Positions 16,430 through 62,013 are shown, counted from the first letter of the stretch. The stretch: DNA of 64,000 nt from an uncultured Candidatus Binatia bacterium (GCA_965216585.1 CBDCGC010000003.1:2337219-2401218); one strand, 5' to 3'. Notes: generated by a model from the letters alone, not told the origin. Program-made: numbers and translations.

Positions 16430-18867
<2,438 letters not shown>

Positions 18868-18984
18868 CGGTCGTTGACGCTATCACCCGCAGCGTTGTAT
18901 TGAAACGACAAAATCGGCGCCAAACAACTTTTGTTGCAGCAAGTGGGCGGCGACGTGCATCTCATCGATTGGGAGGGACATCGA

Positions 18985-19965
18985 ATGGCCAATGCAATCG
19001 CCGGAATTCTCTTCGGAATTCTCCTGCTTGCGCAGCCCGGTACTGCCGCCGCCCAGTGCGCCTGTGACTGCGACGCCGACGGCCGGGTCAGCGTCGCCGA
19101 GTTGGTGCGGGCCGTCGCCATCGCCCTAGGAAGGGCGGACCTTTCGGGGTGCGCCAACGGTTTGAACGCTGGCGAACCGGTGACCATCGACATCCTCATC
19201 GGCTGCGTGCGCAACGCCCTCGATGGCTGTCAGGGGCCGCGGCCAACGACACCCACACCGACGCCTTTCGTCTGCCCCATCACCCCGACGCAATGTCCAT
19301 CACCGCAGGTCATGCACTTTCCGGACAACGCGTGCCCGATCTGCGCGACGCCAACACCGACGCCTTTCGTCTGCCAGGTAACGCCGACGCCGTGCCCGTC
19401 GCCGTTGGTAATGTTCTACCCACCCGAATCGTGTCCGATCTGCGCCACCCCGGTGCCGCCAGCCTGCACGCCGCCGCCTTGTGCAGACGGTGAGGTCTTC
19501 TACTGCGGCAACTGCCCGGATCCGTGCCCCCAAGGCTGCGGCACGATCTGCGCCACGCCGACGGTCACCTGCACGCTGCCGGTGTGTAGGGACGACGAAG
19601 TTCTGCACGGTCGACCCTGCGGCGGTGGATGTCCGATCTGTGCGACACCCACACCGACGCCCTCGCCGACCTCCACATTCACCACCACTCCAACTCCGTT
19701 CGTCTGCCAAGTCACACCAACTCTGTGCCCGTCGCCCCAGGTCATGGTCTTTCCGCCCAAATCCTGCCCGATCTGCGCAACGCCAACGCCGATCCCGGCC
19801 ACACCGACACAGACCTTCACACCCTTTGGTGGTCCGCTGCCGACAGAGTGTCGCACGCCATTGGTATGTCCGACCTCACAACACCCCGTGCGCACCCCCG
19901 GCCGCTGTCCAATTTGCGCCACCATCACCAAGGCGCCGTCGACGCCGACCCATACCCCGACCTGA
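18985..19965 (+). CDS. secreted Cys-rich tandem-repeat protein with N-terminal dockerin-like Ca-binding motif and Pro/Thr linkers
   Basis: Signal peptide MANAIAGILFGILLLAQPGTAAAQ and a GGGAGGG Shine-Dalgarno. Dockerin/EF-hand-like CDCDADGRVSVAELVRAV. At least 3 near-identical 34-aa units TPTPFVCx(V/I)TPTxCPSPxVMxFPxxxCPICATP plus 3 degenerate units. Confidence 0.6.
   Translation: MANAIAGILFGILLLAQPGTAAAQCACDCDADGRVSVAELVRAVAIALGRADLSGCANGLNAGEPVTIDILIGCVRNALDGCQGPRPTTPTPTPFVCPITPTQCPSPQVMHFPDNACPICATPTPTPFVCQVTPTPCPSPLVMFYPPESCPICATPVPPACTPPPCADGEVFYCGNCPDPCPQGCGTICATPTVTCTLPVCRDDEVLHGRPCGGGCPICATPTPTPSPTSTFTTTPTPFVCQVTPTLCPSPQVMVFPPKSCPICATPTPIPATPTQTFTPFGGPLPTECRTPLVCPTSQHPVRTPGRCPICATITKAPSTPTHTPT
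19252..19800 (+). repeat. in-frame tandem coding repeat: 102-nt unit (2 adjacent copies at about 19255-19458, third copy about 19690-19795) encoding the 34-aa 4-Cys module
   Basis: The nucleotide string acaccgacgcctttcgtctgcc... recurs at about 19255 and 19357 and, diverged, near 19690. Copies are separated by PTPTP linker codons. Confidence 0.6.
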
Positions 19966-20140
19966 TCCGCTGATAGGGGCTGATCGGGGAACAAGCCATC
20001 GGCATTCTCAACCAAAAACCCCGACCACCCATCTGCGGCCATCGGCGGATCGTTTCAACCGACTACCTGACTCCCCGAACAATCCATCTGCGGACACCCG
20101 CAGTTTGACGCGGCCGCCCAACTTCGATCAGCATGGGTGA

Positions 20141-21520
20141 ATGGCGATCTCGAAGACTCTCGGCGCGACGTTGGTGGTGCTGGTTGCGTTAGCGGTTTCC
20201 AACGGCCTACTCACCGCAACGTCTCAGGCCGGCGATCCACCTTGTGCCGGGGATTGCAATGGCGACGGGGCCGTTCGCGTCAATGAGCTGATCGCCATGG
20301 TGCGCGTCGCGCTCGGCAACGGCGCAGTTGACGACTGTTCCGCCGGTGATGCCAACGGCGACGGTTCGATCCGGATTGACGACCTGATCGCCGCCGTGCG
20401 CAGCGGGCTCAGAGGTTGCGGCACTTCGGCGTTTGACGGCTTCGACCGGCGCGACGTCGAGCGACTCGCCGATGACGAGCTCGACGGCCGCGACAACGGC
20501 ACACCGGGGTCGCGGTTGGCGCAGGAGTACATCCTCGACCAGATTCGCGAATTCACCGTCGGCCTCGACACCTCGCGCAGCGGCGACGAGGCGTATCGAC
20601 AAACGTTCGACGGCGGCACCAACATCCTCGCTCTCATGCCGGGCGGCGAGCTGGCCGATGAATACGTTTTCATCGGCGGACACTACGACCACTTCGCCGG
20701 CTGCGCTGGCGTGTGCAACGGCGCCACCGACAACGCCGCCGGTAGCGCGATCGTGCTCGCCATCGCCCGCGGTCTCGCCGCCCAGGCCGGGCCGCCGCGC
20801 CGCTCGGTGGTCTTCGCCTTTTGGGATCGCGAGGAAGATGGCTTGCTCGGCTCGGCGCACTACACCAGCAATCCGCTCGTGCCGCTGGCCGATACGGTGG
20901 CCTATCTCAACTTCGACATCCAGGGCGCCAACCTTCTGCCCAGCTTGCGCAACATCTCCTTCGCCGTCGGCGCCGAGACCGGCGGAACGTCGTTCCAGGG
21001 ACAGGTGAGCGACGCCGTGGCGAGCACCGGGCTCGACGTCCGCCTGTTGTCTTCGATCTTCGGCCAGGCACGCAGCGACTACATCCACTTCATCAACGCC
21101 CAGGTGCCGACCGTTTTCTTCAGCGATTCGACAGGCCCCTGCTATCACACCGCCGGGGACGACGTGGAGATCGTCGACTTCGACAAGCTGGAGGCACAGA
21201 GCGGCATCGGTTTCGAGCTGGCGCAAACCGTCATCGGCAGCGACGCGCGGCCGGAGTTCGTCGCCATGACGCCGCTGGCGGTGTTCCAGGACGCGGTCGA
21301 GGTGCGCGACGTCATCGACCGGGCCATCGCCACCGATCTGGATCGTTTTCCCGGCGACAGCCGGGCGACCATTCTGCAGTTGCAGAGCGACCTCGCGGCG
21401 GCGGTGAGCGAGGGAGAGGACAACTTCGACAACGACGACATCGGCACCTTGCTGGTCGGCGTCGTCGCGGTCATCGATCTCCTCACCGAGCTTCCCTGCG
21501 ACGGATTTCTGACTCAATGA
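20141..21520 (+). CDS. secreted M28-family zinc peptidase with N-terminal double dockerin-like repeats
   Basis: Signal peptide; two DxNGDG(x)(V/I)xxx(E/D)L repeats (GDCNGDGAVRVNELIAMV, DANGDGSIRIDDLIAAV); M28 metal ligands HYDH, DNAAGSA, EED. Confidence 0.75.
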   Translation: MAISKTLGATLVVLVALAVSNGLLTATSQAGDPPCAGDCNGDGAVRVNELIAMVRVALGNGAVDDCSAGDANGDGSIRIDDLIAAVRSGLRGCGTSAFDGFDRRDVERLADDELDGRDNGTPGSRLAQEYILDQIREFTVGLDTSRSGDEAYRQTFDGGTNILALMPGGELADEYVFIGGHYDHFAGCAGVCNGATDNAAGSAIVLAIARGLAAQAGPPRRSVVFAFWDREEDGLLGSAHYTSNPLVPLADTVAYLNFDIQGANLLPSLRNISFAVGAETGGTSFQGQVSDAVASTGLDVRLLSSIFGQARSDYIHFINAQVPTVFFSDSTGPCYHTAGDDVEIVDFDKLEAQSGIGFELAQTVIGSDARPEFVAMTPLAVFQDAVEVRDVIDRAIATDLDRFPGDSRATILQLQSDLAAAVSEGEDNFDNDDIGTLLVGVVAVIDLLTELPCDGFLTQ

Positions 21521-21585: not shown

Positions 21586-23304
21586 GTGCGCTACTCTCGA
21601 TCACTCATTCCGACCCTCAAAGAGGATCCTTCCGACGCCGAAGTCGTCAGTCACAAGCTGATGGTGCGAGCTGGGATGATCCGCCAGGTAGCGCGCGGCA
21701 TCTACGACTTTCTCCCACTCGGCCTGCGCGTCGTGCGCAAGGTCGAGCGCATCGTGCGCGAAGAGATGGACCGCGCTGGCGCCCAGGAGATCCTCATGCC
21801 CGCGGTGTGCCCCGCCGAGCTGTGGCAGGAGTCCGGGCGCTGGGACCTCTACGGCCGCGAGTTGCTGCGCCTGAAAGACCGGCACGACCGCGACTTCTGC
21901 ATCGGCCCGACCCACGAGGAAGTGGTGACCGACATCGTGCGCCGCGAGATCCGTTCCTACCGCGACCTGCCGGCCAACCTCTACCAGATCCAGTCGAAGT
22001 TTCGCGACGAGATCCGCCCCCGTTTCGGCCTGATGCGCGGCCGCGAGTTCGTCATGAAAGACGCGTACTCGTTCCACACCGACTACGAGGACTGCAAGCG
22101 CGAGTACCAACACATGTTCGACACCTACACGCGCATCTTCGAGCGCTGTGGTCTCACCTTCCGCCCGGTCGAAGCGGCCACCGGCGCCATCGGCGGTTCG
22201 CTGTCACACGAGTTTCACGTGCTCGCCGAGTCGGGTGAAGACGCCCTGGTCTCCTGCCCGAACTGTACCTACGCCGCCAATGTCGAGAAGGCGGAGATCC
22301 GCGCACGCGCTGCCGGCGGCGGCGAATCCAGTGGCGCATCGGAGATCGTCGAGACACCCGGCAAGAAGACCGTCGAGGAGGTATCTCAGCTCCTCGACAT
22401 CGCGCCCCAACGCTTCATCAAAACGCTGCTCTTCAAGACCGAGAGCGCCGAGGTGATCGCCGCACTGGTACGCGGCGATCACGATCTCAGCGAAGACAAG
22501 CTGGTTTCCGCGCTGGGCTGCGAGCGCGTGGAGTTGGCCGAGGTCGCCGAAGTCGAGAAGCACACCGGCGCAGCTGTCGGCTTTGCCGGGCCAATCGGTT
22601 TGCAGATCCGCACCCTCGCCGACCATGCCATCGACGGCCTGAGCGGCGCCGTCACCGGAGCCAACCAAACCGACCACCACCGCAAGGGTGTCGATCAGCG
22701 GCGCGACTTCCCCGATGTCGCCTTTGCCGATCTGCGCACAGCGGCGCCGGGCGACCCCTGCGCCCGCTGCGACGACGGTGTATATGAAGGCCACCGCGGC
22801 ATCGAAGTCGGGCAGGTGTTCTACCTCGGCACCAAGTACAGCGAGTCGATGGACGCCTCCTACCTGGCCGAGAGCGGCGAGAAGCAGGTCATCGAGATGG
22901 GCTGCTACGGCATTGGCGTGACCCGCACGGTTGCGGCGGCGATCGAGCAAAACCACGACGACGGCGGGATCGTCTGGCCCCTGGCACTGGCGCCGGCACA
23001 CATCCATCTCGTCAACGTCAAGGCCAAGGATGCCGACCTTTGCGCCGCTGCCGACAAGCTCTACGACGATTTGCTCGCCGCCGGGTTGGAAGTTCTCTAC
23101 GACGACCGCGATGAACGAGCCGGCGTGAAGTTCAAGGACGCCGATCTCATCGGCATCCCCCATCGCCTGACACTCGGCCCAAGGGGAATGGCCAACGGCG
23201 TCGTCGAGCTCAAGCGGCGCAACGAGAGCGACGCGCGGGAGATCGCCCTCGCCAATGCGGCACCGGAACTGTCGGCGATGATCGACGCCGAGCTGAACGA
23301 GTGA
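21586..23304 (+). CDS. proS: proline--tRNA ligase (bacterial type with INS editing domain)
   Basis: GTG start; MRYSRSLIPTLKEDPSDAEVVSHKLMVRAGMIRQ..., class II aaRS motifs, 572 aa. Confidence 0.95.
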   Translation: MRYSRSLIPTLKEDPSDAEVVSHKLMVRAGMIRQVARGIYDFLPLGLRVVRKVERIVREEMDRAGAQEILMPAVCPAELWQESGRWDLYGRELLRLKDRHDRDFCIGPTHEEVVTDIVRREIRSYRDLPANLYQIQSKFRDEIRPRFGLMRGREFVMKDAYSFHTDYEDCKREYQHMFDTYTRIFERCGLTFRPVEAATGAIGGSLSHEFHVLAESGEDALVSCPNCTYAANVEKAEIRARAAGGGESSGASEIVETPGKKTVEEVSQLLDIAPQRFIKTLLFKTESAEVIAALVRGDHDLSEDKLVSALGCERVELAEVAEVEKHTGAAVGFAGPIGLQIRTLADHAIDGLSGAVTGANQTDHHRKGVDQRRDFPDVAFADLRTAAPGDPCARCDDGVYEGHRGIEVGQVFYLGTKYSESMDASYLAESGEKQVIEMGCYGIGVTRTVAAAIEQNHDDGGIVWPLALAPAHIHLVNVKAKDADLCAAADKLYDDLLAAGLEVLYDDRDERAGVKFKDADLIGIPHRLTLGPRGMANGVVELKRRNESDAREIALANAAPELSAMIDAELNE

Positions 23305-33657: not shown

Positions 33658-33837
33658 CGCCGTTCCCACCTGCGAGCCTCTGGCGCGACGGCCATGGGCG
33701 GGTCGACCTAGATCCCGTGAACGCCGTTCTATTCATTTGAGCGGCGGGCCTCATTGTCGACCCGGGGCTGTGGTGCTAGGTCTACCGGCTTTCGATCCGT
33801 TCGGTACGTTTTGTCACCGATCGAAAGGGGGAATGCA

Positions 33838-36213
33838 ATGTCGACAAAATCGAGAGCGTGGCGGCGTCTCATTACTGCGCTCGCCCTTCTGGGCATCGCG
33901 GCGGCTTGCGGGGACGACGACTCCGCCGGCGAAATCACTGAACCGGCGGCCTTCACGGTGAGCCCGGGGGTGCGGCTGGTGACCGTCAGCGGCGCCGAGG
34001 CCAAGCAGCCGCTGACTCTGCGCGACGCCTCGGGGCGGCGCTTGATCACGCTCATCGCCGACGACAACGGCAACGCCGCCTTCTCGCCGATTACCGAGGA
34101 GCACACGGTCTATGAAACCGGCACCGGCGAAGCGCCACCGAGCGGGCGCGGGTTCACCCTGCGCGCCGGTGATGGCTACGTCATTCGCGACGAGTCGACC
34201 GACCCGATCCAGACCTCCGAACCGTTCCGCGTCCTGGCGCGCGACGACCTTCCCGACGAATCTCTCTACGACGAACAGGTGGTGAACGGTGTGCCCTGGG
34301 AGATCACCGGCGGCGCCGCCCTCGAAGAGCACGACGTCGAAGAGGGCGTCAACTATCTCGAGATGCGCGACGGCACGCTGCTCTCCGCCATGGTCCGCCT
34401 TCCCGATCCGCGCTTCTACGGCGATCCACCTTATCCAACCGTCATCGAGCTGTCCGGCTACGATCCGTCCAACCCGAGCAGTCCCGAGCCCGGCTCGCTG
34501 ATCGCAGGCGCCTTGGGCTACGCGACGGTCGGCGTCAACCTGCGCGGCACTGGCTGCTCGGGCGGAGTGTTCGACGTCTTCTCGCCGGCCGAACAAGCCG
34601 ACGGCTACGACCTGGTCGAGATCATCGCCCGCCAGCCGTGGGTGCTCCACAACCACGTCGGCATGGTCGGTTTGAGCTACTCCGGCATCACCCAGCTCTT
34701 CACCGCATCGACACAGCCGCCCAGCTTGGCCGCCATTGCACCGCTGTCGGTCATCGAGGACTCGTGGCAGATGGCATGGCCCGGCGGAATCTACAACGCC
34801 GGTTTCACCAAACAGTGGGTCGCCGAGCGCGAGCGCCAGTCGTCCGGCCAGCAGGGTTGGACGCGACGCCGCATCGAAGCTGGCGATACGGTCTGCGAAG
34901 CCAACCAGGCGTTGCGCGATCAGAGCGTCGGCTTCGAGGCCTTCGTGCGCTCACTGCAAACGCGCCCCGACGATGCAGACGAACGCGACCTCGCCAGGCT
35001 GGCTCCGTCGATCAACCGGCCGGTCTTTCTCACCGGCGCCTGGCAGGACGAGCAGACCGGTCCGCGTTTTGCCACCATGCTCGATAACTTCACCGGTGCC
35101 GGCAACAAGAGCTTCGTCCTCTTCAACGGCCACCACCCCGATGGCTACAGCGCCCACAACCTGAGCCGCTGGTACGAGTTCCTCGACCTCTACGTCGCTC
35201 GACGCGTGCCGCGTTTGCTCGATCTGGTGCGCGCGGTATTGCCGGACGAGCTCGAGAACAACTTCGGCGCGCCGCTCGCTCTCGACCCCGACCGCTTTGC
35301 CGACCTCGACGACTCGCAATACGACGAGGCACTCGCCCGCTGGGAATCGGATCCCACCATCACGATCGACTTCGAGGTCGGCATGGGCGACGTCGACAAC
35401 GCCCTCGGCGCGCCGGTGCCGCGCTTTACGGCGCAATTCGATCACTTCCCACCGGCCGACGCGGAAGCGTGGCGCCTCTACCTGGACGCCGGCGGACGCC
35501 TCGTAGATGCCGCACCGGCGGAAGAGGGCGCCGACCGCTTCACCTTCGATGCCGACATCGGCTTGGTCGGCTACGCCAACGAAGGCGGTTTCGACTTCAT
35601 CATGCCGAGTTTCGATCTCGACTTCGACTGGCAACCGACGCCGGACGGAAAGGGCCTTTCCTACCTGACCGAGCCAATCGACGAAGACGTCGTCATCGCC
35701 GGCTCCGGCCACGCCGATTTGTGGTTGCGCAGTGAAAGCAGCGAAGCCGCGATCGAGCTGGTTCTCTCAGAAGTCACACCCGACGGCGACGAAGTTCGTA
35801 TCCAGAACGGAGTCCTGCGCGCCGGATTTCCGGTCGACGAAGAACGCTCGGACGATTTCACGATTCAAATTCTATACCACCCGGACTCCTACCAACCGCT
35901 ACCGGTCGGCGAGCTCGTCCTCGTGCGCGTACCGATCTTCCCGGTTGCCCACCCGCTGCGCGCCGGCTCGCAACTGCGCCTTCAGATCAACACCCCGGGC
36001 GGCGACCTGCCGTTGTGGTTCTTCGAAAACCGCGACCCCGGCGGCGAGGACATCGGCTACAACATCGGCCGCGGCGGCTCCGCCGCGTCGTCGATCGTCC
36101 TGCCCGTGCTGCCGGCCGGCGCGATCGATATCCCCGCCGAAAGGCCGATCTGCGGCGCCTTGCGCGGCCAGCCATGCCGAGCCTACGTCCCGCTGGAGAA
36201 CGAGCCCTCCTGA
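33838..36213 (+). CDS. secreted CocE/NonD-family (S15 X-Pro dipeptidyl-peptidase-like) alpha/beta hydrolase, probable lipoprotein
   Basis: AAGGGGG Shine-Dalgarno; signal peptide ending ...LLGIAAAC; GLSYSG nucleophile motif; about 790 aa. Confidence 0.65.
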   Translation: MSTKSRAWRRLITALALLGIAAACGDDDSAGEITEPAAFTVSPGVRLVTVSGAEAKQPLTLRDASGRRLITLIADDNGNAAFSPITEEHTVYETGTGEAPPSGRGFTLRAGDGYVIRDESTDPIQTSEPFRVLARDDLPDESLYDEQVVNGVPWEITGGAALEEHDVEEGVNYLEMRDGTLLSAMVRLPDPRFYGDPPYPTVIELSGYDPSNPSSPEPGSLIAGALGYATVGVNLRGTGCSGGVFDVFSPAEQADGYDLVEIIARQPWVLHNHVGMVGLSYSGITQLFTASTQPPSLAAIAPLSVIEDSWQMAWPGGIYNAGFTKQWVAERERQSSGQQGWTRRRIEAGDTVCEANQALRDQSVGFEAFVRSLQTRPDDADERDLARLAPSINRPVFLTGAWQDEQTGPRFATMLDNFTGAGNKSFVLFNGHHPDGYSAHNLSRWYEFLDLYVARRVPRLLDLVRAVLPDELENNFGAPLALDPDRFADLDDSQYDEALARWESDPTITIDFEVGMGDVDNALGAPVPRFTAQFDHFPPADAEAWRLYLDAGGRLVDAAPAEEGADRFTFDADIGLVGYANEGGFDFIMPSFDLDFDWQPTPDGKGLSYLTEPIDEDVVIAGSGHADLWLRSESSEAAIELVLSEVTPDGDEVRIQNGVLRAGFPVDEERSDDFTIQILYHPDSYQPLPVGELVLVRVPIFPVAHPLRAGSQLRLQINTPGGDLPLWFFENRDPGGEDIGYNIGRGGSAASSIVLPVLPAGAIDIPAERPICGALRGQPCRAYVPLENEPS

Positions 36214-36360
36214 CCCCAATCGAATCGCGAAGCTCTACTCACCGCCACGGAAAGATCCATTGTCGCTGCTGCCGCGGCTCTTCCTTGACTCGGATCGCAC
36301 GGAACGACTAAGACTGAACCTTGCGATTGAGGACATTCCAGAAGGTAGAATGGAGAATCC

Positions 36361-37503
36361 ATGAAGTCTGTTCGCGCACTGACCTTTGCCCCGCTGTTTC
36401 TGCTTCTGCCGATCGCCTTCGCTCCGACGTTGGCAACGGCGGCTCGCCACACGGTTCACCCCGGCGAATCGATTCAGGCGGCGATCGACGCCGCGGCCCC
36501 CGGCGATACGGTCAAGGTGATGCCCGGTGACTACATCGAGCCCGGCCCGGGTCCCGCCGCAGTGAGAATCACCAAGCGGCTCAAATTGATCGCCAAGAGC
36601 AAGTTGCCGGATGTGAAGGTTCGCATCCTGCCCGGCGCGGGGCAGACCGACGGCATCGTCGTCGAGCCCGAAAACCCGGGCGACCCGGACGTCGAAAAGG
36701 TCCTCATCAAGGGTTTCACCGTCGAGGGTTTCCCCAACAACGGCATCTGGCTGCGCCACGTCAACAAGTTCAAGATCAAGAACAACGAGTCGATCGACAA
36801 TCTCGAGAACGGAATCTGGCCAACGCTTTCCGCCAACGGCCTGGTGAAGAACAACGTTTCGTACGGTTCGCTGGACGCCGCCTTGTGGATCGAGGCCGCA
36901 GAGAACGTACGCGTCATCAAGAACGATCTCCATCACAGTCCGACCGGCCTCGAAATCACGGTGTCGCGGAACATCATCGCCAAGAAGAACGACATCCACC
37001 ACAACACCGTTGGCGTCGGCCTCTACCATCCCAACGGGGCGGGACTGCCGCCGCTCGGCAACGACGGTGACTGGTACATCATCAACAACCACATCCACGA
37101 CAACAACGAGATGAATACCGCGCCACCGGGGTCGTTGTCGGCAGAGCTACCGCCTGGGGGTGGAATCCTGTTGATCGGCGTCGACCGGGTTACGGTCAAG
37201 AACAACCTGATCGAAAACAACAACTTCTTCGGACTCGCGGTGGTGGACTGGTGTTTGGGCTTCGACTGCGATGTCAGCCCGCCGATCGTCGCCGATCAGT
37301 TTCCAGACGAGAACAGGGTCATCAAGAACAACCTCATCGACAACGGACTCAGCCCCATTCCGTTTGGTGGCTTGGAAATCTTCGCCAACGACATCATCTA
37401 CCTCTTGCTAGAACCCGGCCACGAAAACTGCTTCGCGAAAAACACCGGTACGTTCGGGGGGCTTGGAACACCCATACACGCCAACTCCTGCCCGCGATTC
37501 TGA
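36361..37503 (+). CDS. secreted right-handed parallel beta-helix repeat protein (pectate-lyase fold)
   Basis: Signal peptide; repeated NNxIxxN / IKNN turns (IKNNESIDN, VKNNVSYG, IKNDLHHS, KKNDIHHN, INNHIHDN, VKNNLIENN, IKNNLIDN). Asn/Lys-rich and visibly lower GC than its neighbours. Confidence 0.6.
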   Translation: MKSVRALTFAPLFLLLPIAFAPTLATAARHTVHPGESIQAAIDAAAPGDTVKVMPGDYIEPGPGPAAVRITKRLKLIAKSKLPDVKVRILPGAGQTDGIVVEPENPGDPDVEKVLIKGFTVEGFPNNGIWLRHVNKFKIKNNESIDNLENGIWPTLSANGLVKNNVSYGSLDAALWIEAAENVRVIKNDLHHSPTGLEITVSRNIIAKKNDIHHNTVGVGLYHPNGAGLPPLGNDGDWYIINNHIHDNNEMNTAPPGSLSAELPPGGGILLIGVDRVTVKNNLIENNNFFGLAVVDWCLGFDCDVSPPIVADQFPDENRVIKNNLIDNGLSPIPFGGLEIFANDIIYLLLEPGHENCFAKNTGTFGGLGTPIHANSCPRF

Positions 37504-37611
37504 CACCGGAATCGTTTCCACGGCCTGATCGGCGCGGGTTGGTGAAGGTGCGTCCCCCTTTGTCCAACCCAGCTGCCCGAATGGCGTAGGGTGCCACGTG
37601 TTTGTCGTTCC

Positions 37612-39966
37612 ATGACCGCCCGCGCCGCCTTTTGGGTCGTTCTCGCGATCGGTTTCCTCGCTGCCGGCCCCGGAGACCTCGCCTTCGCGCGCGAGACGAA
37701 GGGCACCGACCCTGTCAAACCCTCCGAAGGGCTCCTGAAAATCACCTACCCTCAGGAGGGAACGCTGTTCCCCCCTGAAATCGTCGCCCCCACTTTCCTG
37801 TGGGAAGAGGGCACCGCCAACGTCGAAGTCTGGAATGTCGTCGTTCGCGACGACAGTGGTGGCGAGTTGCTCAAAGCCACGGTTGATGCACCGCAGTGGC
37901 GCCCCTCCGAGGAAACGTGGAACCAGATCAAGCTGCAGAGCTCGGAGCGCGACGCTGCAGTGACCGTCGAAGGAGTAGACCGCGACGACGGCGCGGCGGT
38001 CCTGTCGTCGGCAAGTGTCCACATTCGCACTTCGAAAGACCCGGTTGGCGACTCTCTGTTCTATCGCGAGGTGCCGCTGCCTTTTTTGACGGCTGTACAG
38101 GACCCGTCACTCATTCGCTGGCGCTACGGAACCATCGACTCGCAGTCGGGCCCGCCGATCGTACTGCAGAACTTGCCGGTGTGTGGCAACTGCCACTCCT
38201 TTGCCGACAACGGCAGCGTACTCGGTCTCGACGTCGACTACGGCAACGACAAGGGCGCCTACGCGATCATGACCGTTTCTTCTCACATGGTGATGGACGA
38301 CGAGAAGATCATCACCTGGGCGGACTACAAGCGTCAGGACGGAGAGATCACCTTTGGCTTACTGTCGCGTGTTTCGCCCAGCGGCCGGTACGTGATCAGC
38401 ACCGTCAAAGACCGCTCGGTGTTCGTCGCCATCCCGGACATCATGATCTCGCAGCTCTTCTTTCCGATCAAAGGCATTCTCGTCGTCTACGATCGGGAGA
38501 ACGAGACCTACAAGGCGTTGCCCGGTGCTGACGACCCGCGCTACGTGCAGAGCAACGCGGTCTGGAGTCCGGATGGCAAAGAGATCGTCTTCGCCCGGGC
38601 AAAGGCCTACCACGCGCAAAGTCTCGATCAGCAAAACAGCGCCATCGTCGACGAGAAAGACGTCCCAGAGTTCATCGTCGACAAGAAGCCCTTTCGCTAC
38701 GACCTGTACCGAATTCCGTTCAACGACGGCCAAGGCGGGACGGCAGTACCGCTCGAAGGCGCCTCGAGCAACGGGATGAGCAACTTCTTTCCGAAATACT
38801 CACCCGACGGCAAGTGGATCATCTTCTGCAAAGCAGAGAACTACATGTTGCTTCAGCCCGACGCCGAGCTCTACATCATCCCCGCCAAAGGTGGCAGGGC
38901 GCGCCGCCTGCGCTACAACACCGCGCGCATGAATTCCTGGCACAGTTGGTCTTCCAACAGCCGGTGGCTGGTCTTCTCTTCCAAGGTCAACACGGCCTAC
39001 ACGCAGCTCTTTCTCACTCACATCGACGCCGACGGAAACGATAGCCCGCCCGTCCTCCTCGAGCGCTTCACCTCTCCCGACCGCGCGGCGAACATTCCTG
39101 AGTTCGTCAATTTGCCGGGCGACGCCATCGCCGCCATCCGCGAGAATTTCCTCGACGCCTACTCGTTCTTACGGGCCGGTATGGCCAACGAACGCACCGG
39201 CGACCACAAGGGCGCCGAACGCGCCTTCCGGCGGGGGCTGGGGCTCTCCCCACAAGACGCCGAACTGCGCAACGCATTGGGTTGGACGTTGTTTCAGAGC
39301 GGCAGGACCGACGAGGCGTTGGCAGAATACCGGCGAGCCCTGGCGGTGGATCCGCAACACGTCAAGTCGCACAACAACATGGCTCTTGCCCTGGTCGAGC
39401 TCGGTAGGTTGGAGGATGCGGCCGCACACTTCGAAAAGTCCCTCCAAATCGAACCGAAGGCCGAAATCTACAGCGATCTCGGTTTCATCAAGGCCCGTCT
39501 GGGCAAGTCAGACGAGGCCCTCGCCGACTATCGCAAAGCGCTGGAGCTGGATCCAAAGTGTGCATCGGCACACGTGAACCTCGCCGTCGCGTTCATCCAA
39601 GCAGGCGCGCTCTCCAAAGCCGAGTCCCACTACCGCCAGGCTCTGGAAGAAAAGCCCGCCGCCGCTACCCACAACGGCCTGGGTTTCGCGCTGGCGCGAC
39701 AGGGCCGCGTGGACGAGGCGCTCGCCGAGTACGGCAAGGCGGTCGAAGTCGACCCAAACTTCACCCCAGCCTACAACAACCTCGCGGCTTCGTTGGCAAA
39801 GCAAGGCAAGCTCGAAGATGCGGAGCGCTACTACCGACGTTCGCTAGAGCTCAAGCCGAGCGCCTCCGTACACAACGCATTGGGAATTCTGTTGGGCCGA
39901 CTCGGCAGATCCGAGGAGGCCGCAGATCACTTCCGCCAGTCGAAAGCTTTGGAATCGGCAAGGTGA
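37612..39966 (+). CDS. secreted protein with CxxCH haem-binding motif, TolB-like PD40 beta-propeller repeats and C-terminal TPR repeat array
   Basis: Signal peptide MTARAAFWVVLAIGFLAAG; CGNCH; WSPDGKEIVF and YSPDGKWIIF PD40 motifs; about 10 TPR units in the last 330 aa. Confidence 0.65.
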   Translation: MTARAAFWVVLAIGFLAAGPGDLAFARETKGTDPVKPSEGLLKITYPQEGTLFPPEIVAPTFLWEEGTANVEVWNVVVRDDSGGELLKATVDAPQWRPSEETWNQIKLQSSERDAAVTVEGVDRDDGAAVLSSASVHIRTSKDPVGDSLFYREVPLPFLTAVQDPSLIRWRYGTIDSQSGPPIVLQNLPVCGNCHSFADNGSVLGLDVDYGNDKGAYAIMTVSSHMVMDDEKIITWADYKRQDGEITFGLLSRVSPSGRYVISTVKDRSVFVAIPDIMISQLFFPIKGILVVYDRENETYKALPGADDPRYVQSNAVWSPDGKEIVFARAKAYHAQSLDQQNSAIVDEKDVPEFIVDKKPFRYDLYRIPFNDGQGGTAVPLEGASSNGMSNFFPKYSPDGKWIIFCKAENYMLLQPDAELYIIPAKGGRARRLRYNTARMNSWHSWSSNSRWLVFSSKVNTAYTQLFLTHIDADGNDSPPVLLERFTSPDRAANIPEFVNLPGDAIAAIRENFLDAYSFLRAGMANERTGDHKGAERAFRRGLGLSPQDAELRNALGWTLFQSGRTDEALAEYRRALAVDPQHVKSHNNMALALVELGRLEDAAAHFEKSLQIEPKAEIYSDLGFIKARLGKSDEALADYRKALELDPKCASAHVNLAVAFIQAGALSKAESHYRQALEEKPAAATHNGLGFALARQGRVDEALAEYGKAVEVDPNFTPAYNNLAASLAKQGKLEDAERYYRRSLELKPSASVHNALGILLGRLGRSEEAADHFRQSKALESAR

Positions 39967-40164
39967 GCCGGAACTATCACCTGCCGCACGGCAACCCAGA
40001 CCATGTCGCGCTCCGGCCCGATCATATTCCTTGACAATCGATAAGTCTTCTTGGGATTGTACACGTTGGCGTCGTAGGCGTTGTCGACAGACAGGAGCGT
40101 TGAACGACATATCGGTCGAGCAAACCCTCTGAACAGCGAACAGCCGTATGAACGTGGGAGCAAG

Positions 40165-41391
40165 ATGATTCGATTTCGACTGAGGCAGGAAGCCATGACA
40201 ACCATTGCAACGCGGATCGGCGCTGCCGTCACCCTCGCAGCGACCGTCATGATACAGACTTCGCACGCCTACCCGACCTACAACGACGGTATGGGTAACG
40301 GCTGCGTGCAGTGTCACAACGGCTTCAACGGAGGCACCGGTGCTTTGCACACCAATCACCGGGATCAGTTGGGGGTTCAGACCTGCAACCTGTGTCACCC
40401 CAACGGCGGCGGCACGACTCCGGTGTCGACATACACCAGCGGTACGGGTGGCGCCCTCGGCTGCGCCGGGTGTCACGGTCAGGATTACGGCGAGACGTCA
40501 CCCAACAGCGGCCAGCCAAAGGCGACCGCCTACGGCTTGCGCCAACACCACGTCAACAACGGCATCAGCTCGTGCGGAACCGGAGGCTGCCACGCGCCAG
40601 GGTCCCTCGGACACCCCAATCCCTTCCCGCCGCTATTTGGTGAGGATGAGGTGCCGCCCTACTACGATCCTATTTTCAGCGGTCTGACCGATCCGTGCTC
40701 GAGCTCGGACGAAGACATGCCTTTCGATATGGACTCTCTCGGCCTCGACAACGACGGCGACGGCGACATCGACGGAGCCGATCTGGATTGCGCCGTGTCG
40801 GGAACACCGACGGCGACACCCAGCCCGACATCGACTCCCGCGCCGACCACGGCATTGAGTTGTGGGAGTGGGCCTGTAGCCGGTTGCATCGCCCCTGCAA
40901 AAGGGGTGCTGGTCGTCAAAGAAAAAGCCGCCGGCAAGGAGAAGATCAAAGTCGCGCTCAAGAAGCTGCAGCCTGCACTCGTCCCGAATGACTTCGGCGA
41001 CCCGGTTACCGGAGCGACGGCGTACAAGATCTGTATCTACGATTCCACCGACCAGCCGGTGGGAGAGTACACCGTCGACCAAGCCGGAGCCTTGTGCAAC
41101 GGCGTGTCCTGTTGGTCGTCGATCACCAAGGGCTACAAGTACCGCGACAAGGGCACCTCGACGGACGGAATCTTGAAGATCAATCTGTTCGGCGGCGACG
41201 CCGGCAAGGGCAAGGTGATCGTCGTCGGCAAGAACAAGACCGGAAATTTGCCGACCGGGGTAGCGTCGGCAATGCAAGGCGAAACCAGCGCAACGGTTCA
41301 GGTCTTGTCGAGCGATGCCTCTTGCGTCGGCATGAATCTGCCGCAAGTCAAGAAGGCCGACGGCCTGATCTTCAAAGCTACCGGGCCCTGA
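40165..41391 (+). CDS. secreted multihaem c-type cytochrome (cytochrome-c3-like motif set) with Asp-rich dockerin-like segment, PT linker and novel C-terminal domain
   Basis: CVQCH, CNLCH, CAGCH plus CGTGGCH (CX4CH as in class III cytochromes); DNDGDGDIDGADLD; TPTATPSPTSTPAPTT linker. Start 40165 or 40195. Confidence 0.65.
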   Translation: MIRFRLRQEAMTTIATRIGAAVTLAATVMIQTSHAYPTYNDGMGNGCVQCHNGFNGGTGALHTNHRDQLGVQTCNLCHPNGGGTTPVSTYTSGTGGALGCAGCHGQDYGETSPNSGQPKATAYGLRQHHVNNGISSCGTGGCHAPGSLGHPNPFPPLFGEDEVPPYYDPIFSGLTDPCSSSDEDMPFDMDSLGLDNDGDGDIDGADLDCAVSGTPTATPSPTSTPAPTTALSCGSGPVAGCIAPAKGVLVVKEKAAGKEKIKVALKKLQPALVPNDFGDPVTGATAYKICIYDSTDQPVGEYTVDQAGALCNGVSCWSSITKGYKYRDKGTSTDGILKINLFGGDAGKGKVIVVGKNKTGNLPTGVASAMQGETSATVQVLSSDASCVGMNLPQVKKADGLIFKATGP

Positions 41392-57793: not shown

Positions 57794-58011
57794 TCGAGGA
57801 TCGGTGGCTGACGCAGTCGCGGGCGATCTATAGGCGCCTGCTGGACGGCACCGCAACCGCGCGCGATCGACTCGACATCGCGATCATGGTGCATGAGATG
57901 CGCGAGGCGCACCTGCCGGTACCGGCCGAGATCGTGGCGGCTGCCGGCGCGCCGCCGGCTTGGTACCTCGCTGGCGACCCGATGCCGGCGGCAGAGCGGA
58001 GGAGGGTTTAG
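57790..58011 (+). CDS. hypothetical protein
   Basis: MIEDRWLTQSRAIYRRLLDG...; ATGA overlap with the upstream ORF. Confidence 0.3.
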   Translation: MIEDRWLTQSRAIYRRLLDGTATARDRLDIAIMVHEMREAHLPVPAEIVAAAGAPPAWYLAGDPMPAAERRRV

Positions 58012-58013
58012 GG

Positions 58014-59894
58014 ATGAGGATCTCCCGGGACGCAGAGCGCTGGGTGGCCGAGAGCACCTACGAGGAGCGGGCCATTCCGAAACGCGCCGGCTGGCGTTGG
58101 GACCCGAAGGACAAGTGCTGGTGGACGGACGACATCGAGAAGGCGGCGCGACTAGCGGAGTACGCCGACGAGGGTTGCGCCGATGAACTGCGGCCGATCC
58201 TCGATGAGCAGCAGGCCGCACTGGCGGCGTCGCGCGCTGTAGATTCCGACATCGACGTCCCCGCGCCGGACGGCCTGGCGTACCTCCCGTACCAACGCGG
58301 AGGCATTGCCTTCGCCGCCGCGCGCGAAGCCTGCCTGATCGGCGACGAGATGGGGCTTGGCAAGACGATTCAGGCCCTCGGCGTGATCAACCTCGACGAA
58401 TCGATCCGCCGCGTCCTGGTTGTCTGTCCCGCGTCACTCAAGGCCAACTGGGCCATCGAGGCGCGCAAGTGGCTGGTCCGCGACATGTCGGTGGGCATCG
58501 CGGCAGGTAGGCGCCTGCCCGACGCCGATGTCGTGATCGTCAACTACGCAATCCTCACCAAGCTGCCGCTCGATTCCGTGGAGTGGGACCTGCTCATCGC
58601 CGACGAGTGCCACTACGCGAAGAATCCCAAAGCCAAGCGCACGAAAGCGCTCTTTGCGGTCAAGGCGGCGCGCAGGATTCTTCTCACCGGAACCCCGATC
58701 GTCAACCGGCCCGTCGAGCTCTGGCCGCTGATCAAGTACCTCGACCCGAAGCGCTGGAAGAACAAGATGAGGTTCGGCTGGCGCTACTGCGGCGCGCATC
58801 AGAACGCCTACGGGTACTGGGACTTCTCGGGCGCCACGAATCTCGACGAGCTGCAGGAGATTCTCCGTAGCACGATCATGGTTCGCCGGTTGAAGGTCGA
58901 CGTTCTTACTGACCTTCCGCCCAAGGTCCGCCAGGTTGTCGAGTTGCCGTCGGATGGCATGGACTGGGCGCACGAATCGGACGCCAGCGACGCCTACGAC
59001 GACCTGCAAGCTGCGGAGGAAGAGGTCGACGCCCTCGACGAGTCCGCGCCCGGGTACGAGGCCGCGGTCGGCCGACTCAAGCAGGCCAGGCGGTTTTTCT
59101 TCGACGAAATCAGCCGGGTGCGGCACGAGACGGCGCTCGCGAAAGTGCCGCACGCAATCGAGCACCTGCACAACGCGCTCGAGGACGGCCGCAAGATCGT
59201 GTGCTTCGCGCACCACCATGACGTCATCGAGGCGCTGGCCTCCGAGTTTGGTGACTCGGCGGTAGTGATCTACGGCGAAACGAATGTGGACGACCGGCAG
59301 GGCGCCGTCGACCGCTTCCAGTCCGATCCGGATTGCCGCCTCTTCGTTGGCAGCATCGGCGCCGCCGGAGTCGGGCTAACGCTCACCGCGGCGGCGCACG
59401 TTGTCTTTGTCGAGCTCGACTGGGTGCCGGGCAATGTCAGCCAGGCAGAGGATCGCTGCCACCGCATCGGACAGCGCGATAGCGTGCTGGTGCAACACCT
59501 GGTCTTCAACGGATCAATCGACGCCCGTATCGCGCGCACGATCATCGCCAAGCAGCGGGTGATTGACGATGCACTCGATACGCAGCACCTGCCCGCCGAA
59601 CCCGCACAACCGAAGCCGGTCGCACACGACCCGGAGCTACCGGCCGCGCAGGTGGAAGCGATCCACAATGGGTTGCGGATGTTGGCCGCATTCTGCGACG
59701 GAGCTCGCGAGGTCGATGGGGCCGGATTCAACAAACTCGATACCGACTTTGGGAAATCCCTTGCAGGTGCCCAGTCGCTGAGCCCTAAGCAGGCCAGGGC
59801 TGGTCGCAAGCTCGTGAGGAAGTACCGGCGACAGTTACCAGATGACCTGGTCGCAGTAGCCGTCGACGGCCCGCAAGCCGAGGTAACGGCATGA
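58014..59894 (+). CDS. SNF2/RAD54-family DEAD/DEAH-box helicase (phage-type)
   Basis: GGAGG Shine-Dalgarno; motifs GDEMGLGKT (I), DECH (II), LLTGTPIVN (III), C-terminal helicase domain (GSIGAAGVGLTLTAA, QAEDRCHRIGQ). Confidence 0.85.
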   Translation: MRISRDAERWVAESTYEERAIPKRAGWRWDPKDKCWWTDDIEKAARLAEYADEGCADELRPILDEQQAALAASRAVDSDIDVPAPDGLAYLPYQRGGIAFAAAREACLIGDEMGLGKTIQALGVINLDESIRRVLVVCPASLKANWAIEARKWLVRDMSVGIAAGRRLPDADVVIVNYAILTKLPLDSVEWDLLIADECHYAKNPKAKRTKALFAVKAARRILLTGTPIVNRPVELWPLIKYLDPKRWKNKMRFGWRYCGAHQNAYGYWDFSGATNLDELQEILRSTIMVRRLKVDVLTDLPPKVRQVVELPSDGMDWAHESDASDAYDDLQAAEEEVDALDESAPGYEAAVGRLKQARRFFFDEISRVRHETALAKVPHAIEHLHNALEDGRKIVCFAHHHDVIEALASEFGDSAVVIYGETNVDDRQGAVDRFQSDPDCRLFVGSIGAAGVGLTLTAAAHVVFVELDWVPGNVSQAEDRCHRIGQRDSVLVQHLVFNGSIDARIARTIIAKQRVIDDALDTQHLPAEPAQPKPVAHDPELPAAQVEAIHNGLRMLAAFCDGAREVDGAGFNKLDTDFGKSLAGAQSLSPKQARAGRKLVRKYRRQLPDDLVAVAVDGPQAEVTA

Positions 59895-60181
59895 CCGGCC
59901 GCTATTGCCCGAAGTGCCGCGCCATCTGGTGTCACCCCTCGGCGTACTGCGAGCACCTGCGAGTCGACGGCTACGCGCAGGATATGCGGCTCTACGTCGA
60001 CGCGGTGCGCCGGGAGGCCGAGGCGATCGCGCAGGCGGTGGAGGGCATCGACCGCACCGCACTGTCGAGCCCGGAGCTCGCGGCGATCGCGGATCGGATG
60101 GAGCAGCGCAGCAGCGAGCTGCTCGACATCACGGACACGGCCGCGACGACGATTGAGCGGCTACAGCGGGGGCTGTCGTGA
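59891..60181 (+). CDS. hypothetical zinc-ribbon-like protein
   Basis: CPKCRAIWCHPSAYCEH N-terminus; overlaps the helicase stop. Confidence 0.35.
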   Translation: MTGRYCPKCRAIWCHPSAYCEHLRVDGYAQDMRLYVDAVRREAEAIAQAVEGIDRTALSSPELAAIADRMEQRSSELLDITDTAATTIERLQRGLS

Positions 60182-60450
60182 TGGTTGGGGCCGCATTCGG
60201 GATTATTGCCGGAATCGAACTGGGAAAGGTCTTTCGGCTCGAGATCTTGCGGCGGGTGCAGACCCTAACCGGCCCGGATCGGCTTCACATCTGGGCGTAC
60301 TGGCTGGCGGACTATCACCCCGGGCACCCAGACGGAGAACACCGAATCGCCGAACGCGGCCAGTTCTTTGTCGTGTACGAAGACGAAGCCGATCGGCGCT
60401 GGCCCGACGCCGTCAGTGTGGACACGGACATTGGCCGGGAGGCGGCGTGA
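60178..60450 (+). CDS. hypothetical protein
   Basis: 90-aa ORF in the translationally coupled phage-like array. Confidence 0.3.
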   Translation: MMVGAAFGIIAGIELGKVFRLEILRRVQTLTGPDRLHIWAYWLADYHPGHPDGEHRIAERGQFFVVYEDEADRRWPDAVSVDTDIGREAA

Positions 60451-60890
60451 TGGCCGCCAGGGTTTCCGTTGCCGAAGCTCGATCGCGACGAGATGCGGAC
60501 TTTGCCGCCGGCGCTGATGCGCGCCGCAAGCAGATCGCCCGCGAGCTGCGATCCATTGCACGTCAGGTTGAGTGCGGCGACTCCGACGAAACGGTGCTCG
60601 CCGCCGCCGGGCGACTGATCCAGCACAACCAAGCCAGCCGCGAACGGTGCGCGGCCTTCTACTCAATCCACGAAGCGGCCGCCGGCACCGGGTCGAGCGT
60701 GTCCTACCGCGTCGACGCGCACGTTGAGAGCGAGACGGTCCCTGCCGGGTCGTTTCCGGCCTTCGACGAGGCGCTCGACTACTGCCGCGACGTCTTCGCG
60801 CGCCGCGGGGCCAGGTTCGGAATCGATCGAGTCTGCGACGGGCACTGGGTGACCGCGTCGCTACAGATCACGGGAGGTACAACGACATGA
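60450..60890 (+). CDS. hypothetical protein
   Basis: ATG 60450 overlaps the upstream stop; 146 aa. Confidence 0.35.
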   Translation: MAARVSVAEARSRRDADFAAGADARRKQIARELRSIARQVECGDSDETVLAAAGRLIQHNQASRERCAAFYSIHEAAAGTGSSVSYRVDAHVESETVPAGSFPAFDEALDYCRDVFARRGARFGIDRVCDGHWVTASLQITGGTTT

Positions 60891-61810
60891 TCACAGAAGA
60901 GCAACGACAGCGACGCAAGGGCTTTCTCGGGTCGTCCGATGCGGCGGCGGTATTCGATCTCGACCCCTTCCGAGACAAGACCTCAGTCTACTGGGACAAG
61001 GTCGCGGACATGCCCGACGATGGGCCAACCGCATCAATGCGCGCGGGCAACCTGCTCGAGGGCGCCATCCTCGACTACGCAGCGCAGGAGCTCGGCGTTG
61101 AGATCGAGCGAGATATCGAAATTGCGCCGCCGGCAGATCTGCCGTACATGGGCGCCAATCTCGACGGGCGCGTCGACGGCAAGACTCACGAGGGCGTCGA
61201 GGCTAAGTACGACACCTTCACGGTCGACCAGTGGGGCGACGAAGGGACGGACCAGGTACCCGAGCGCGTCATCGTGCAGGTGCACCACCAGATGGCGGTG
61301 GCGGCGCTCGACCGAGTGTGGGTTCCGGTGCTCAAGCCGCGCGGCTTCGGCTTGTACGTGGTCGACCGATCCGAGGAGTTGATATCCCAGGTCATCGAGG
61401 GCGAGCGGAAGTTCTGGGACGAGCATGTGTTGGCAGAGTTGCCGCCGTCGGGCGACCCGACCCCGCCGCTGGCGTACCTCAAGGCGCGCAACCGTGAACC
61501 GGAGTCGATCGTAGATCTCGACGAGGCGGCCCTTGAAGCCTGGCGCGAGCTCGAAGAGAGGCGCGCAACCGCTAAGGCCGCGAAAGAGGATGTCGACGCG
61601 GCGCAGGCGCGCGTGATTGATCTACTCGGGGACGCCGAGGGTGGACGTCTGCCCTCCGGTGACCTGATCACTTTCCTCGAGCAGAAGTCGGCGCCGTCGT
61701 GCGACAGCAAGCGGCTGCGCGCGTTGCATCCGGACGTGTACCGCGAGTTCTTCCGCCAAGGTACGCACCGGCGACTCAGGCTCAAGGCAGCGAAGAGGGC
61801 GGCGGCGTGA
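60887..61810 (+). CDS. YqaJ-like viral recombinase-domain exonuclease (PD-(D/E)XK, lambda-Exo-like)
   Basis: RRKGFLGSSDAAAVFDLDPFRDKTSVYWDK...MRAGNLLEGAILDYAAQELG...ANLDGRVDG...EAKYD pattern typical of YqaJ; paired with RecT. Confidence 0.7.
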   Translation: MITEEQRQRRKGFLGSSDAAAVFDLDPFRDKTSVYWDKVADMPDDGPTASMRAGNLLEGAILDYAAQELGVEIERDIEIAPPADLPYMGANLDGRVDGKTHEGVEAKYDTFTVDQWGDEGTDQVPERVIVQVHHQMAVAALDRVWVPVLKPRGFGLYVVDRSEELISQVIEGERKFWDEHVLAELPPSGDPTPPLAYLKARNREPESIVDLDEAALEAWRELEERRATAKAAKEDVDAAQARVIDLLGDAEGGRLPSGDLITFLEQKSAPSCDSKRLRALHPDVYREFFRQGTHRRLRLKAAKRAAA

Positions 61811-62013
61811 CGAACCACCCGTCAGCGCCGAGCGGCTCCGTGCTTCCCCTAGGGGCACGGGGAGTCTCGAAGGGGGCTCGTGCGCAGTTTCCTTGTTGTA
61901 TCGGCGCAAGCGCACCGCGTGCCGTCCGCTGCGCTGCTCATCGGCTGGCCCTCCGGGAGCAATAGACGGCAAGGGCCGATTTTCATCGACGAAAATCCAG
62001 AAAGGAGATTGTG

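Follow-up and report, generated by a model that had tools for sequence, protein, structure and literature searches.

A Cys-framed, dockerin-like domain and a family of small Cys-rich modules predicted in two adjacent exported proteins of a probably Binatia-like bacterium

A stretch of 64,000 nucleotides (nt) from an uncultured Candidatus Binatia bacterium (GCA_965216585.1 CBDCGC010000003.1:2337219-2401218; referred to below as the window, with positions counted from its first letter) contains two neighboring open reading frames (ORFs), genes A and B, which lie 175 nt apart on the + strand between kdsB (18097-18867, - strand) and proS (21586-23304). The predicted products of both are exported and begin, once matured, with the same kind of small Cys-framed domain, which resembles dockerins; what follows that domain is a string of small Cys-rich modules in the case of gene A and an M28 aminopeptidase in the case of gene B. 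The features of the two genes are collected in Table 1. Their surroundings are housekeeping genes, including a lipid A acyltransferase gene and nuo-like membrane subunit genes. The presence of lipopolysaccharide (LPS)-pathway genes (kdsB and the lipid A acyltransferase) indicates that the host is a diderm; it is probably Binatia-like.

Table 1. Features of genes A and B, with their positions in the window
Feature	Position	Strand	Description
Shine-Dalgarno-like GGAGG	18972..18976	+	8 nt 5' of the gene A ATG; read from the sequence
Gene A	18985..19965	+	ORF, 326 amino acids (aa); predicted secreted, non-catalytic, modular protein
Gene A signal peptide	18985..19053	+	residues 1-23; AAA/Q cleavage probable; no lipobox; read from the sequence
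Gene A Cys-framed dockerin/EF-hand-like domain	19057..19230	+	residues 25-82; domain profile 84.8 bits, E 1.4e-25
Gene A intact 12-residue Ca loop	19066..19101	+	DCDADGRVSVAE; D1, D3, D5, G6, V8, E12
Module M1	19264..19356	+	reduced 4-Cys, PFVCPITPTQCPSPQVMHFPDNACPICATPT; module profile independent E-value (i-E) 7e-9
Module M2	19363..19455	+	reduced 4-Cys; i-E 6e-8
Module M3	19456..19563	+	near-canonical 6-Cys plus one extra (7 Cys), PPACTPPPCADGEVFYCGNCPDPCPQGCGTICATPT
Module M4	19564..19653	+	5-Cys: the four core Cys and one that aligns with the extra Cys of M3; i-E 6e-10
Module M5	19696..19788	+	reduced 4-Cys; i-E 2e-9
Module M6	19840..19929	+	divergent 4-Cys, C-x5-C-x12-C-x2-C; i-E 1e-7
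Gene B	20141..21520	+	ORF, 459 aa; predicted secreted M28 aminopeptidase with N-terminal dockerin-like domain
Gene B signal peptide	20141..20230	+	residues ~1-30; SQA/G; read from the sequence
Gene B Cys-framed dockerin-like domain	20243..20419	+	residues 35-93; domain profile 89.1 bits
Gene B Ca loop 1	20252-20287	+	DCNGDGAVRVNE; intact
Gene B Ca loop 2	20348-20383	+	DANGDGSIRIDD; intact
Gene B M28 catalytic domain	20621..21193	+	residues 161-351; Pfam PF04389

The gene A frame opens with a TTG at 18931, and the ATG at 18985 is preferred as the start because of the GGAGG that lies upstream of it. What follows looks like a Sec signal peptide, with IAGILFGILLLA as its hydrophobic core and the AAA/Q site after it. 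The layout of the rest is simple: the Cys-framed domain, a Pro/Thr linker, and then six Cys mini-modules of 30-36 aa, themselves joined by Pro/Thr linkers, that make up the body of the protein; there is no enzyme domain, and the mature product contains 34 Cys (11%), 21% Pro and 15% Thr. An earlier reading of this DNA by eye (the original prediction) had placed here the gene of a secreted protein with a Ca-binding-loop segment, and the ORF, the Sec-like signal peptide and an EF-hand-type loop, CDCDADGRVSVAE, bear that out. The nearest homologue, the database protein P0001, is 55% identical across the matched part and identical in architecture, while a search of Joint Genome Institute (JGI) metagenomes for close relatives gave 128 pattern matches, 0 of them confirmed. 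Three other ways of reading these ORFs have been dropped: 1) as lipoproteins, since a lipobox is missing from both; 2) as a low-complexity artefact, since there are homologues of the frame, it starts with a signal peptide, and two types of domain in it are supported by profiles; 3) as the precursor of a ribosomally synthesized and post-translationally modified peptide (RiPP) or lanthipeptide, since gene A combines a signal peptide with a folded domain, and the neighboring genes examined include no modification enzymes.

That the two proteins carry a homologous dockerin/EF-hand-like domain, as originally predicted, is upheld by a profile whose seed set consists of the two genes and 13 relatives from the database: run over all six frames of the window, it finds only genes A and B (scores in Table 1), the next match having E>3. 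Across an alignment of 37 sequences of the domain, C5, D8, C9, V15, C36 and C62 are invariant. In gene A the domain is 58 aa long; its family-invariant Cys are residues 25, 29, 56 and 82, and it has an extra pair at 27 and 74. Aligned with gene B and the relatives, the second loop of gene A (residues ~58-70) has lost its acidic ligands.

What kind of domain is this? An AlphaFold2 (AF2) model of the gene A domain (predicted local distance difference test, pLDDT, 86.9; predicted template-modeling score, pTM, 0.73) runs loop, helix 17-27, short helix 33-36, loop, helix 48-60; loop 1 has no helix in front of it. Two tandem Ca loops, each with a helix after it, are present (the second one degenerate in gene A), and in this modeled fold the duplicated loop-helix (F-hand) order is the arrangement of a dockerin rather than that of an EF-hand; neither the gene A nor the gene B domain reaches an EF-hand gathering cutoff. 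In a Foldseek comparison with the Protein Data Bank (PDB) the top 24 matches of the gene A model are all dockerin chains, type I and related, with TM scores of 0.44-0.66 but non-significant E-values. The likeness to type I dockerins (PF00404; 6kgf_D, 5nrm_B and 4dh2_D), which are the nearest solved folds at TM <=0.66, extends to a size of ~60 aa, the two tandem 12-residue Ca loops with their helices, the short middle helix, and attachment to cargo through Pro/Thr linkers. The differences are as plain: four invariant Cys frame this domain, and to our knowledge classical dockerins have no such framing Cys; it falls below the Pfam cutoff, and the similarity of its profile to PDB sequences is non-significant; loop 2 of gene A is degenerate; the host has LPS genes and is a diderm instead of a Gram-positive cellulolytic anaerobe; the cargo would be a peptidase or a stalk instead of a glycoside hydrolase; and no cohesin partner is known for it. 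With EF-hand pairs (EF-hand_1/6/7) the domain shares the loop consensus DxDxDGxVxxxE, but it differs from them in having no entering helix before loop 1 in the gene A model, in scoring under the gathering cutoffs in genes A and B, and in being extracytoplasmic and Cys-framed. On sequence and model together, we give it a place in the EF-hand superfamily as a Cys-framed, dockerin-like member; it is not a demonstrated dockerin. Non-cellulosomal dockerin-like modules have already been described (Peer et al., 2009, cited in PMC10066038); a literature search found no paper that brings together dockerins and Binatia.

The domain is not rare. A word-indexed search, in which 1,994 candidates were scored, places it in at least 579 clusters at E<=1e-5, many of them fragments; the few that are named come from metagenome-assembled genomes (MAGs) of Candidatus Binatia and Candidatus Acidoferrales. 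It is N-terminal, internal or C-terminal on unrelated proteins, usually with a Pro/Thr linker adjoining, and such varied positions on unrelated passengers are more readily expected of a binding module than of a sorting signal at a terminus. One 74-aa "stand-alone" dockerin-like protein, P0179, is the end of a 460-codon open frame (locus L083, 8843-10222), so that many of the very short matches to the domain are probably fragments or miscalled genes.

The reading that is favored here, with a probability of about 0.5, makes of this shared domain a Ca-dependent docking tag. Genes A and B, in this view, were inherited independently of each other by a diderm, probably Binatia-like bacterium and code for products exported by the Sec route; both mature N-termini present the same lineage-typical Ca-binding module of ~58 aa with its four invariant Cys; and that module would act as an address that holds otherwise unrelated exported proteins on a common partner, either periplasmic or on the cell surface. 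Gene B would then deliver a tagged, active aminopeptidase, while the Cys modules of gene A would be disulfide-bonded beads which, with their linkers, form a tagged, extended stalk or spacer that resists proteases. What we infer in this scheme is the pairing of the disulfides, the role as a stalk and the docking partner.

Several observations weigh against it. 1) Pfam matches fall below their cutoffs or are missing. The original prediction had credited gene B with two canonical dockerin repeats; the two loops are there, but the Dockerin_1 model gives 16.3 bits (E 0.011) against a cutoff of 22.9. (The EF-hand_6 model gives 23.1 bits, 5e-5, also under its cutoff, which is 25.) Gene A has no match at E<=1 to Dockerin_1 and none to EF-hand, and an NCBIfam scan of the domain turned up nothing relevant. 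2) Compared with all PDB sequences, the domain profile yields weak EF-hand matches, the best at E 0.032, and a dockerin only at E 1.1. 3) The Foldseek matches to dockerins have E-values of 0.5-5, none of them <=0.001, and are non-significant for so small a domain. 4) No cohesin is found with Pfam among 20 window proteins scanned; a phmmer search with the cohesin of the metagenomic relative P0016 finds none in the window and 1.3 Mb of related loci, though with the low power of a single-sequence query; none was found near two other carriers of the domain on long contigs; and a database search with the cohesin part of P0016 gave no matches. The cohesin-like surface scaffold to which the original prediction tethered the two proteins has no candidate in the window on these searches, and P0016, which combines a Pfam cohesin (28.1 bits, cutoff 24.1) with this domain, is alone among the relatives in doing so. 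5) The high Cys density of gene A and the CPxC ends of its modules also fit metal binding, a matter taken up below.

A less probable account of the N-terminal domain does away with docking: it would be an extracytoplasmic EF-hand pair that only stabilizes or regulates the attached protein with Ca2+, or else a segment recognized in export, and would have no cohesin-like partner. The family profile statistics incline that way, EF-hand_6 being matched at E<=0.01 by 19 of the 37 domain sequences and Dockerin_1 by 4 (taken over EF-hand models, the figure is 18-19 of 37), as do the absence of cohesin from the window and from the vicinity of the other carriers and the dispersal of domain-bearing genes among housekeeping genes in the neighborhoods examined. 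What such an account must explain away is that the entering helices of a true EF-hand are missing, that the nearest solved folds are dockerins, that neither regulatory domains nor terminal export signals are usually attached by flexible Pro/Thr linkers to unrelated proteins, at both kinds of terminus and internally, as this domain is, and that P0016 pairs the domain with a cohesin.

In gene A and in two relatives, P0001 and P0002, the acidic ligands of loop 2 are lost and an extra Cys pair is gained (C27/C74 in gene A); the coincidence suggests that a disulfide may substitute for the Ca site where loop 2 is degenerate. In other relatives a Cys pair lies inside the second loop; P0006/7, P0086, P0105 and P0153 also combine a degenerate loop 2 with an extra Cys pair of one type or the other.

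The body of gene A differs in several particulars from what had been predicted for it, namely at least three near-identical modules, encoded by a recently duplicated 102-nt repeat, followed by three degenerate ones. Six modules connected by Pro/Thr linkers are indeed there, but the third of the similar copies, M5, comes after M3 and M4, and M3 is near-canonical. M1, M2 and M5 are 68-81% identical in aa sequence and 68-76% in nt sequence; M1 and M2 start 99 nt apart, and M5 starts 333 nt further on, beyond M3 and M4. Tandem Repeats Finder reports nothing at these repeats, and a recent tandem duplication has been dropped as an explanation since identity at third codon positions is just 48-55%: with these positions near saturation, the duplication of M1/M2/M5 is taken to be old and their likeness to have been kept at the protein level. 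Their Cys spacing is C-x6-C-x12-C-x2-C in place of the predicted C-x7-C-x16-C-x2-C. C[PT]ICAT ends all six modules; five end in CPIC, and M3 in CGTIC.

In alignments, the modules of gene A come out as variants of a wider family with six Cys, some of them reduced (4-Cys) and others intermediate (5- and 7-Cys); the canonical member of that family has the spacing C-x4-C-x7-C-x3-C-x3-C-x3-C and the consensus CTPPxCxxGEVxxCPxxCPGGCGxxCATPT. (Aligning the gene A modules with their first homologues gives four invariant Cys and the consensus xxCTPPxCxxxEVxxxCPxxCPxGCGxICATPT.) A 33-position module profile was searched against 1.84 billion representative proteins, with 230 matches at E<=1e-3, 40 at E<=1e-10 and 5 at E<=1e-30; in the window it matches gene A only (162 bits over six stretches, i-E 1e-7 to 2e-15). 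The six gene A modules are themselves among the 19 seeds of the profile, and it is the 13 seeds from other proteins, together with the 230 library matches, that support the family independently. The original prediction had spoken of a novel 4-Cys module: no curated family contains it, but it is a reduced variant of a 6-Cys module that occurs in at least 230 clusters. Among 242 instances drawn from 154 proteins, 227 have six Cys, 156 the exact 4-7-3-3-3 spacing and 230 a loose version of the pattern; the exact spacing is found in 0 of the 6 gene A modules, M3 coming nearest to the canonical form, and 4-Cys forms are confined to gene A (M1, M2, M5 and M6) and its nearest homologue, P0001.

The carriers of this module have 1-6 copies, separated by linkers of median length 8 aa (29% Pro, 23% Thr). 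A strongly hydrophobic N-terminal segment is found in 120 of the 154, and the modules often come after it; 24 of the 154 also have the dockerin-like domain. Partner domains are highly diverse (PD40, CarboxypepD_reg, LysM, WD40, protein kinase, peptidases), none of them occurring in more than 5 of 114 members. Five carriers (P0026, P0033, P0047, P0012 and P0034) have in common a conserved C-terminal domain of ~150 aa with such motifs as EAWGWF, QDFERG, GMPE.DP and RGFG.VW, for which no named family was noticed. That the module stands outside recognized families had been correctly foreseen: no Pfam or NCBIfam model covers it; there is no Pfam match to EGF-like, keratin-associated, VWC, metallothionein or zinc-ribbon families, those to the first two being absent even at E<=1; no solved structure matches it; and nothing relevant was found in the literature on the motif CPGGCG. 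The sole PDB sequence matched by the module profile is a thaumatin-like segment of Jun a 3 (7p20_A 114-143; 18.6 bits, E 0.014), which shares C-T-A-P-A-C-x7-C-P...GGC with the module. The E-value is marginal, and the match is treated as chance or convergence; the thaumatin stretch is part of a 200-aa fold in which its Cys pair with distant residues, and is not a self-contained module.

What do the Cys do? In MAFFT alignments C1, C2, C4 and C6 are invariant, and they are the only Cys retained by M1, M2, M5 and M6; C3 and C5 are jointly missing from all six 4-Cys instances, and their joint loss suggests that C3 and C5 form a disulfide pair. The extra Cys of M3 and of M4 fall at the same aligned position, suggesting a disulfide between the two modules; the adjacent 7-Cys and 5-Cys pair is found again in P0001. 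An AF2 model of M3, made with 96 aligned modules, is a small fold with two short strands (pLDDT 81.5).

One can also read the modules as metal-binding, in the manner of metallothioneins or zinc knuckles, and gene A as an extracytoplasmic metal buffer or carrier. A mature protein with 11% Cys and with 4-7 Cys in each module of ~31 residues invites the thought, as do the CPIC ends of five of the six modules, the canonical C-x3-C-x3-C-x3-C, and the odd Cys counts of M3 and M4. We nevertheless consider it quite improbable. The Cys of a canonical module number six, which is even; the 4-Cys forms have lost C3 and C5 jointly; M3 and M4, each with an odd count, have an even total between them, and such a pair recurs in P0001; the conserved Pro, Gly and aromatic residues and the confidently modeled small β fold are typical of disulfide-rich structural modules; and no metallothionein or zinc-finger family is matched. 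An exported protein in a diderm with standard thiol oxidation is, moreover, expected to be oxidized, which also counts against metal binding. On balance the pattern of the gene A Cys leans toward disulfides.

A second alternative for the modules, also unlikely, is that they are small polymer- or surface-binding domains like the carbohydrate-binding module CBM1, and gene A a multivalent adhesin docked by its N-terminal domain. After the conserved E-V of the module there is an aromatic pair (first position Y 49%, L 22%, F 17%; next Y 40%, H 14%, F 13%), and there are up to six tandem copies. An apparent functional analogy to CBM1 and other small disulfide-rich modules, in a length of 30-36 aa, 4-6 Cys, a small β structure, conserved aromatic residues and Pro/Thr linkers, is a further point in favor of ligand binding. 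On the other side, the module has no sequence or structural match to fungal CBM1 and no Pfam CBM match of any kind, and its Cys spacing is different; it comes in tandem arrays attached to non-CAZy domains, and its partners, with kinases, WD40, PD40 and LysM among them, are not enriched in carbohydrate-active enzymes. The usual placement of the modules, between a membrane or signal segment and a globular domain, is that of a spacer, as the favored reading has it.

Gene B is more readily placed. Its assignment as an M28 aminopeptidase, already made in the original prediction, stands: the Pfam Peptidase_M28 model (PF04389) gives 128.4 bits (cutoff 21.3; E 3.6e-37), and residues 115-351 align with the M28 enzymes 1cp7 (Streptomyces griseus aminopeptidase) and 1amp (Vibrio leucyl aminopeptidase), from both of which gene B differs in adding an N-terminal dockerin-like domain. 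The H/D, DN, EE and NFD motifs are kept; the putative metal and catalytic residues are HYD 179-184, TDN 195-201, EE 231-232, NFD 257-259 and YH 335-336. With the Pfam cutoff passed and the co-catalytic metal ligands conserved in alignment, gene B is assigned to family M28, and the Pfam match and the 1cp7 alignment support the prediction that it encodes an active peptidase.

The best gene B orthologues, 55-64% identical, come from MAGs labeled Candidatus Binatia, "Thermodesulfobacteriota" or unclassified (the best among GTDB representatives is 64% identical). The dockerin-like domain is kept only in these and in one Terriglobales-labeled contig; orthologues from Acidimicrobiia and Thermoleophilia match the catalytic part alone, from residue ~100 on. 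In one orthologue, of 611 aa (locus L002, 7993-9828), an extra N-terminal domain of ~190 aa precedes the dockerin-like module, which is consequently internal.

If the domain has just two carriers in 64 kb, adjacent genes on one strand and 175 nt apart, and no terminator-like site is found on the + strand between them, why should they not be a functional pair or operon, with stalk A presenting or anchoring peptidase B? The answer is provided by their relatives. In the two syntenic loci recovered, L002 and L005, the order pyrG-kdsB-[slot]-M28-proS-pyrF is kept (pyrG is 88-93% identical) and the slot that corresponds to gene A holds unrelated genes and no module gene; P0001 is encoded elsewhere, in a neighborhood with no M28 gene. 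The adjacency of A and B is for these reasons regarded as not conserved. Besides, A and B bear the same kind of tag, not a tag and a receptor, and a dedicated A/B pair appears very improbable. The interval between the two genes contains a 28-nt direct repeat (20019-20046 / 20074-20101, 75% identical) whose core, CCATCTGCGG, occurs in the window exactly twice, 55 nt apart, both copies lying 5' of the M28 gene; the repeat is put forward as a candidate binding site for a regulator. A minus-strand terminator-like hairpin overlaps the first copy.

The alternatives that have been considered are not mutually exclusive, because each addresses a different part of the model. The favored reading, of a docking tag borne by an aminopeptidase and by a disulfide-bonded stalk, also has a more ambitious version: an undescribed extracytoplasmic assembly in Binatia-like diderms, in which hundreds of unrelated exported proteins would dock on a common receptor, cohesin-like or not, some members would have exchanged a Ca site for a disulfide, and gene A would be a non-catalytic adaptor or stalk built from a new class of disulfide mini-domain. 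In this form the proposal is decidedly unlikely.

Some other features of the window deserve mention. An exported protein of 436 aa (40081-41391, + strand) has no Pfam match and contains the CxxCH haem-c motifs CVQCH, CNLCH and CAGCH as well as a GGCH; after them come an acidic loop, DNDGDGDIDGADLDC, a Pro/Thr linker and, at the C-terminus, a domain of ~190 aa without a known family. The protein is possibly a multihaem cytochrome to which an extension has been added. Ahead of it, at 33754-39966 on the + strand, is a run of three genes for an S15 X-Pro dipeptidyl peptidase (819 aa), a right-handed β-helix/NosD-like protein (380 aa) and a PD40 and multi-TPR protein (791 aa), of which at least two have a signal-like start and none has the dockerin-like domain. 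Genes for an SNF2-family helicase, a YqaJ-like exonuclease and a RecT recombinase stand in a row at 57960-62844 (+ strand); a phage-type recombination module of this sort points to a prophage or an integrated element at the 3' end. tRNA genes are absent from the whole window.

Two things are new here: the invariant Cys that frame the dockerin-like domain, and the uncurated family of 6-Cys modules, reduced variants included. The result is one of annotation and not a mechanistic surprise: two recurrent and apparently uncurated modules have been delimited, the domain in at least 579 clusters and the mini-module in at least 230, and with family models of both, exported proteins of Binatia-like and other uncultured bacteria could be better annotated. 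Should the domain truly dock a partner, assembly of the cohesin-dockerin type would be extended to a diderm, non-cellulolytic lineage with peptidase cargo.

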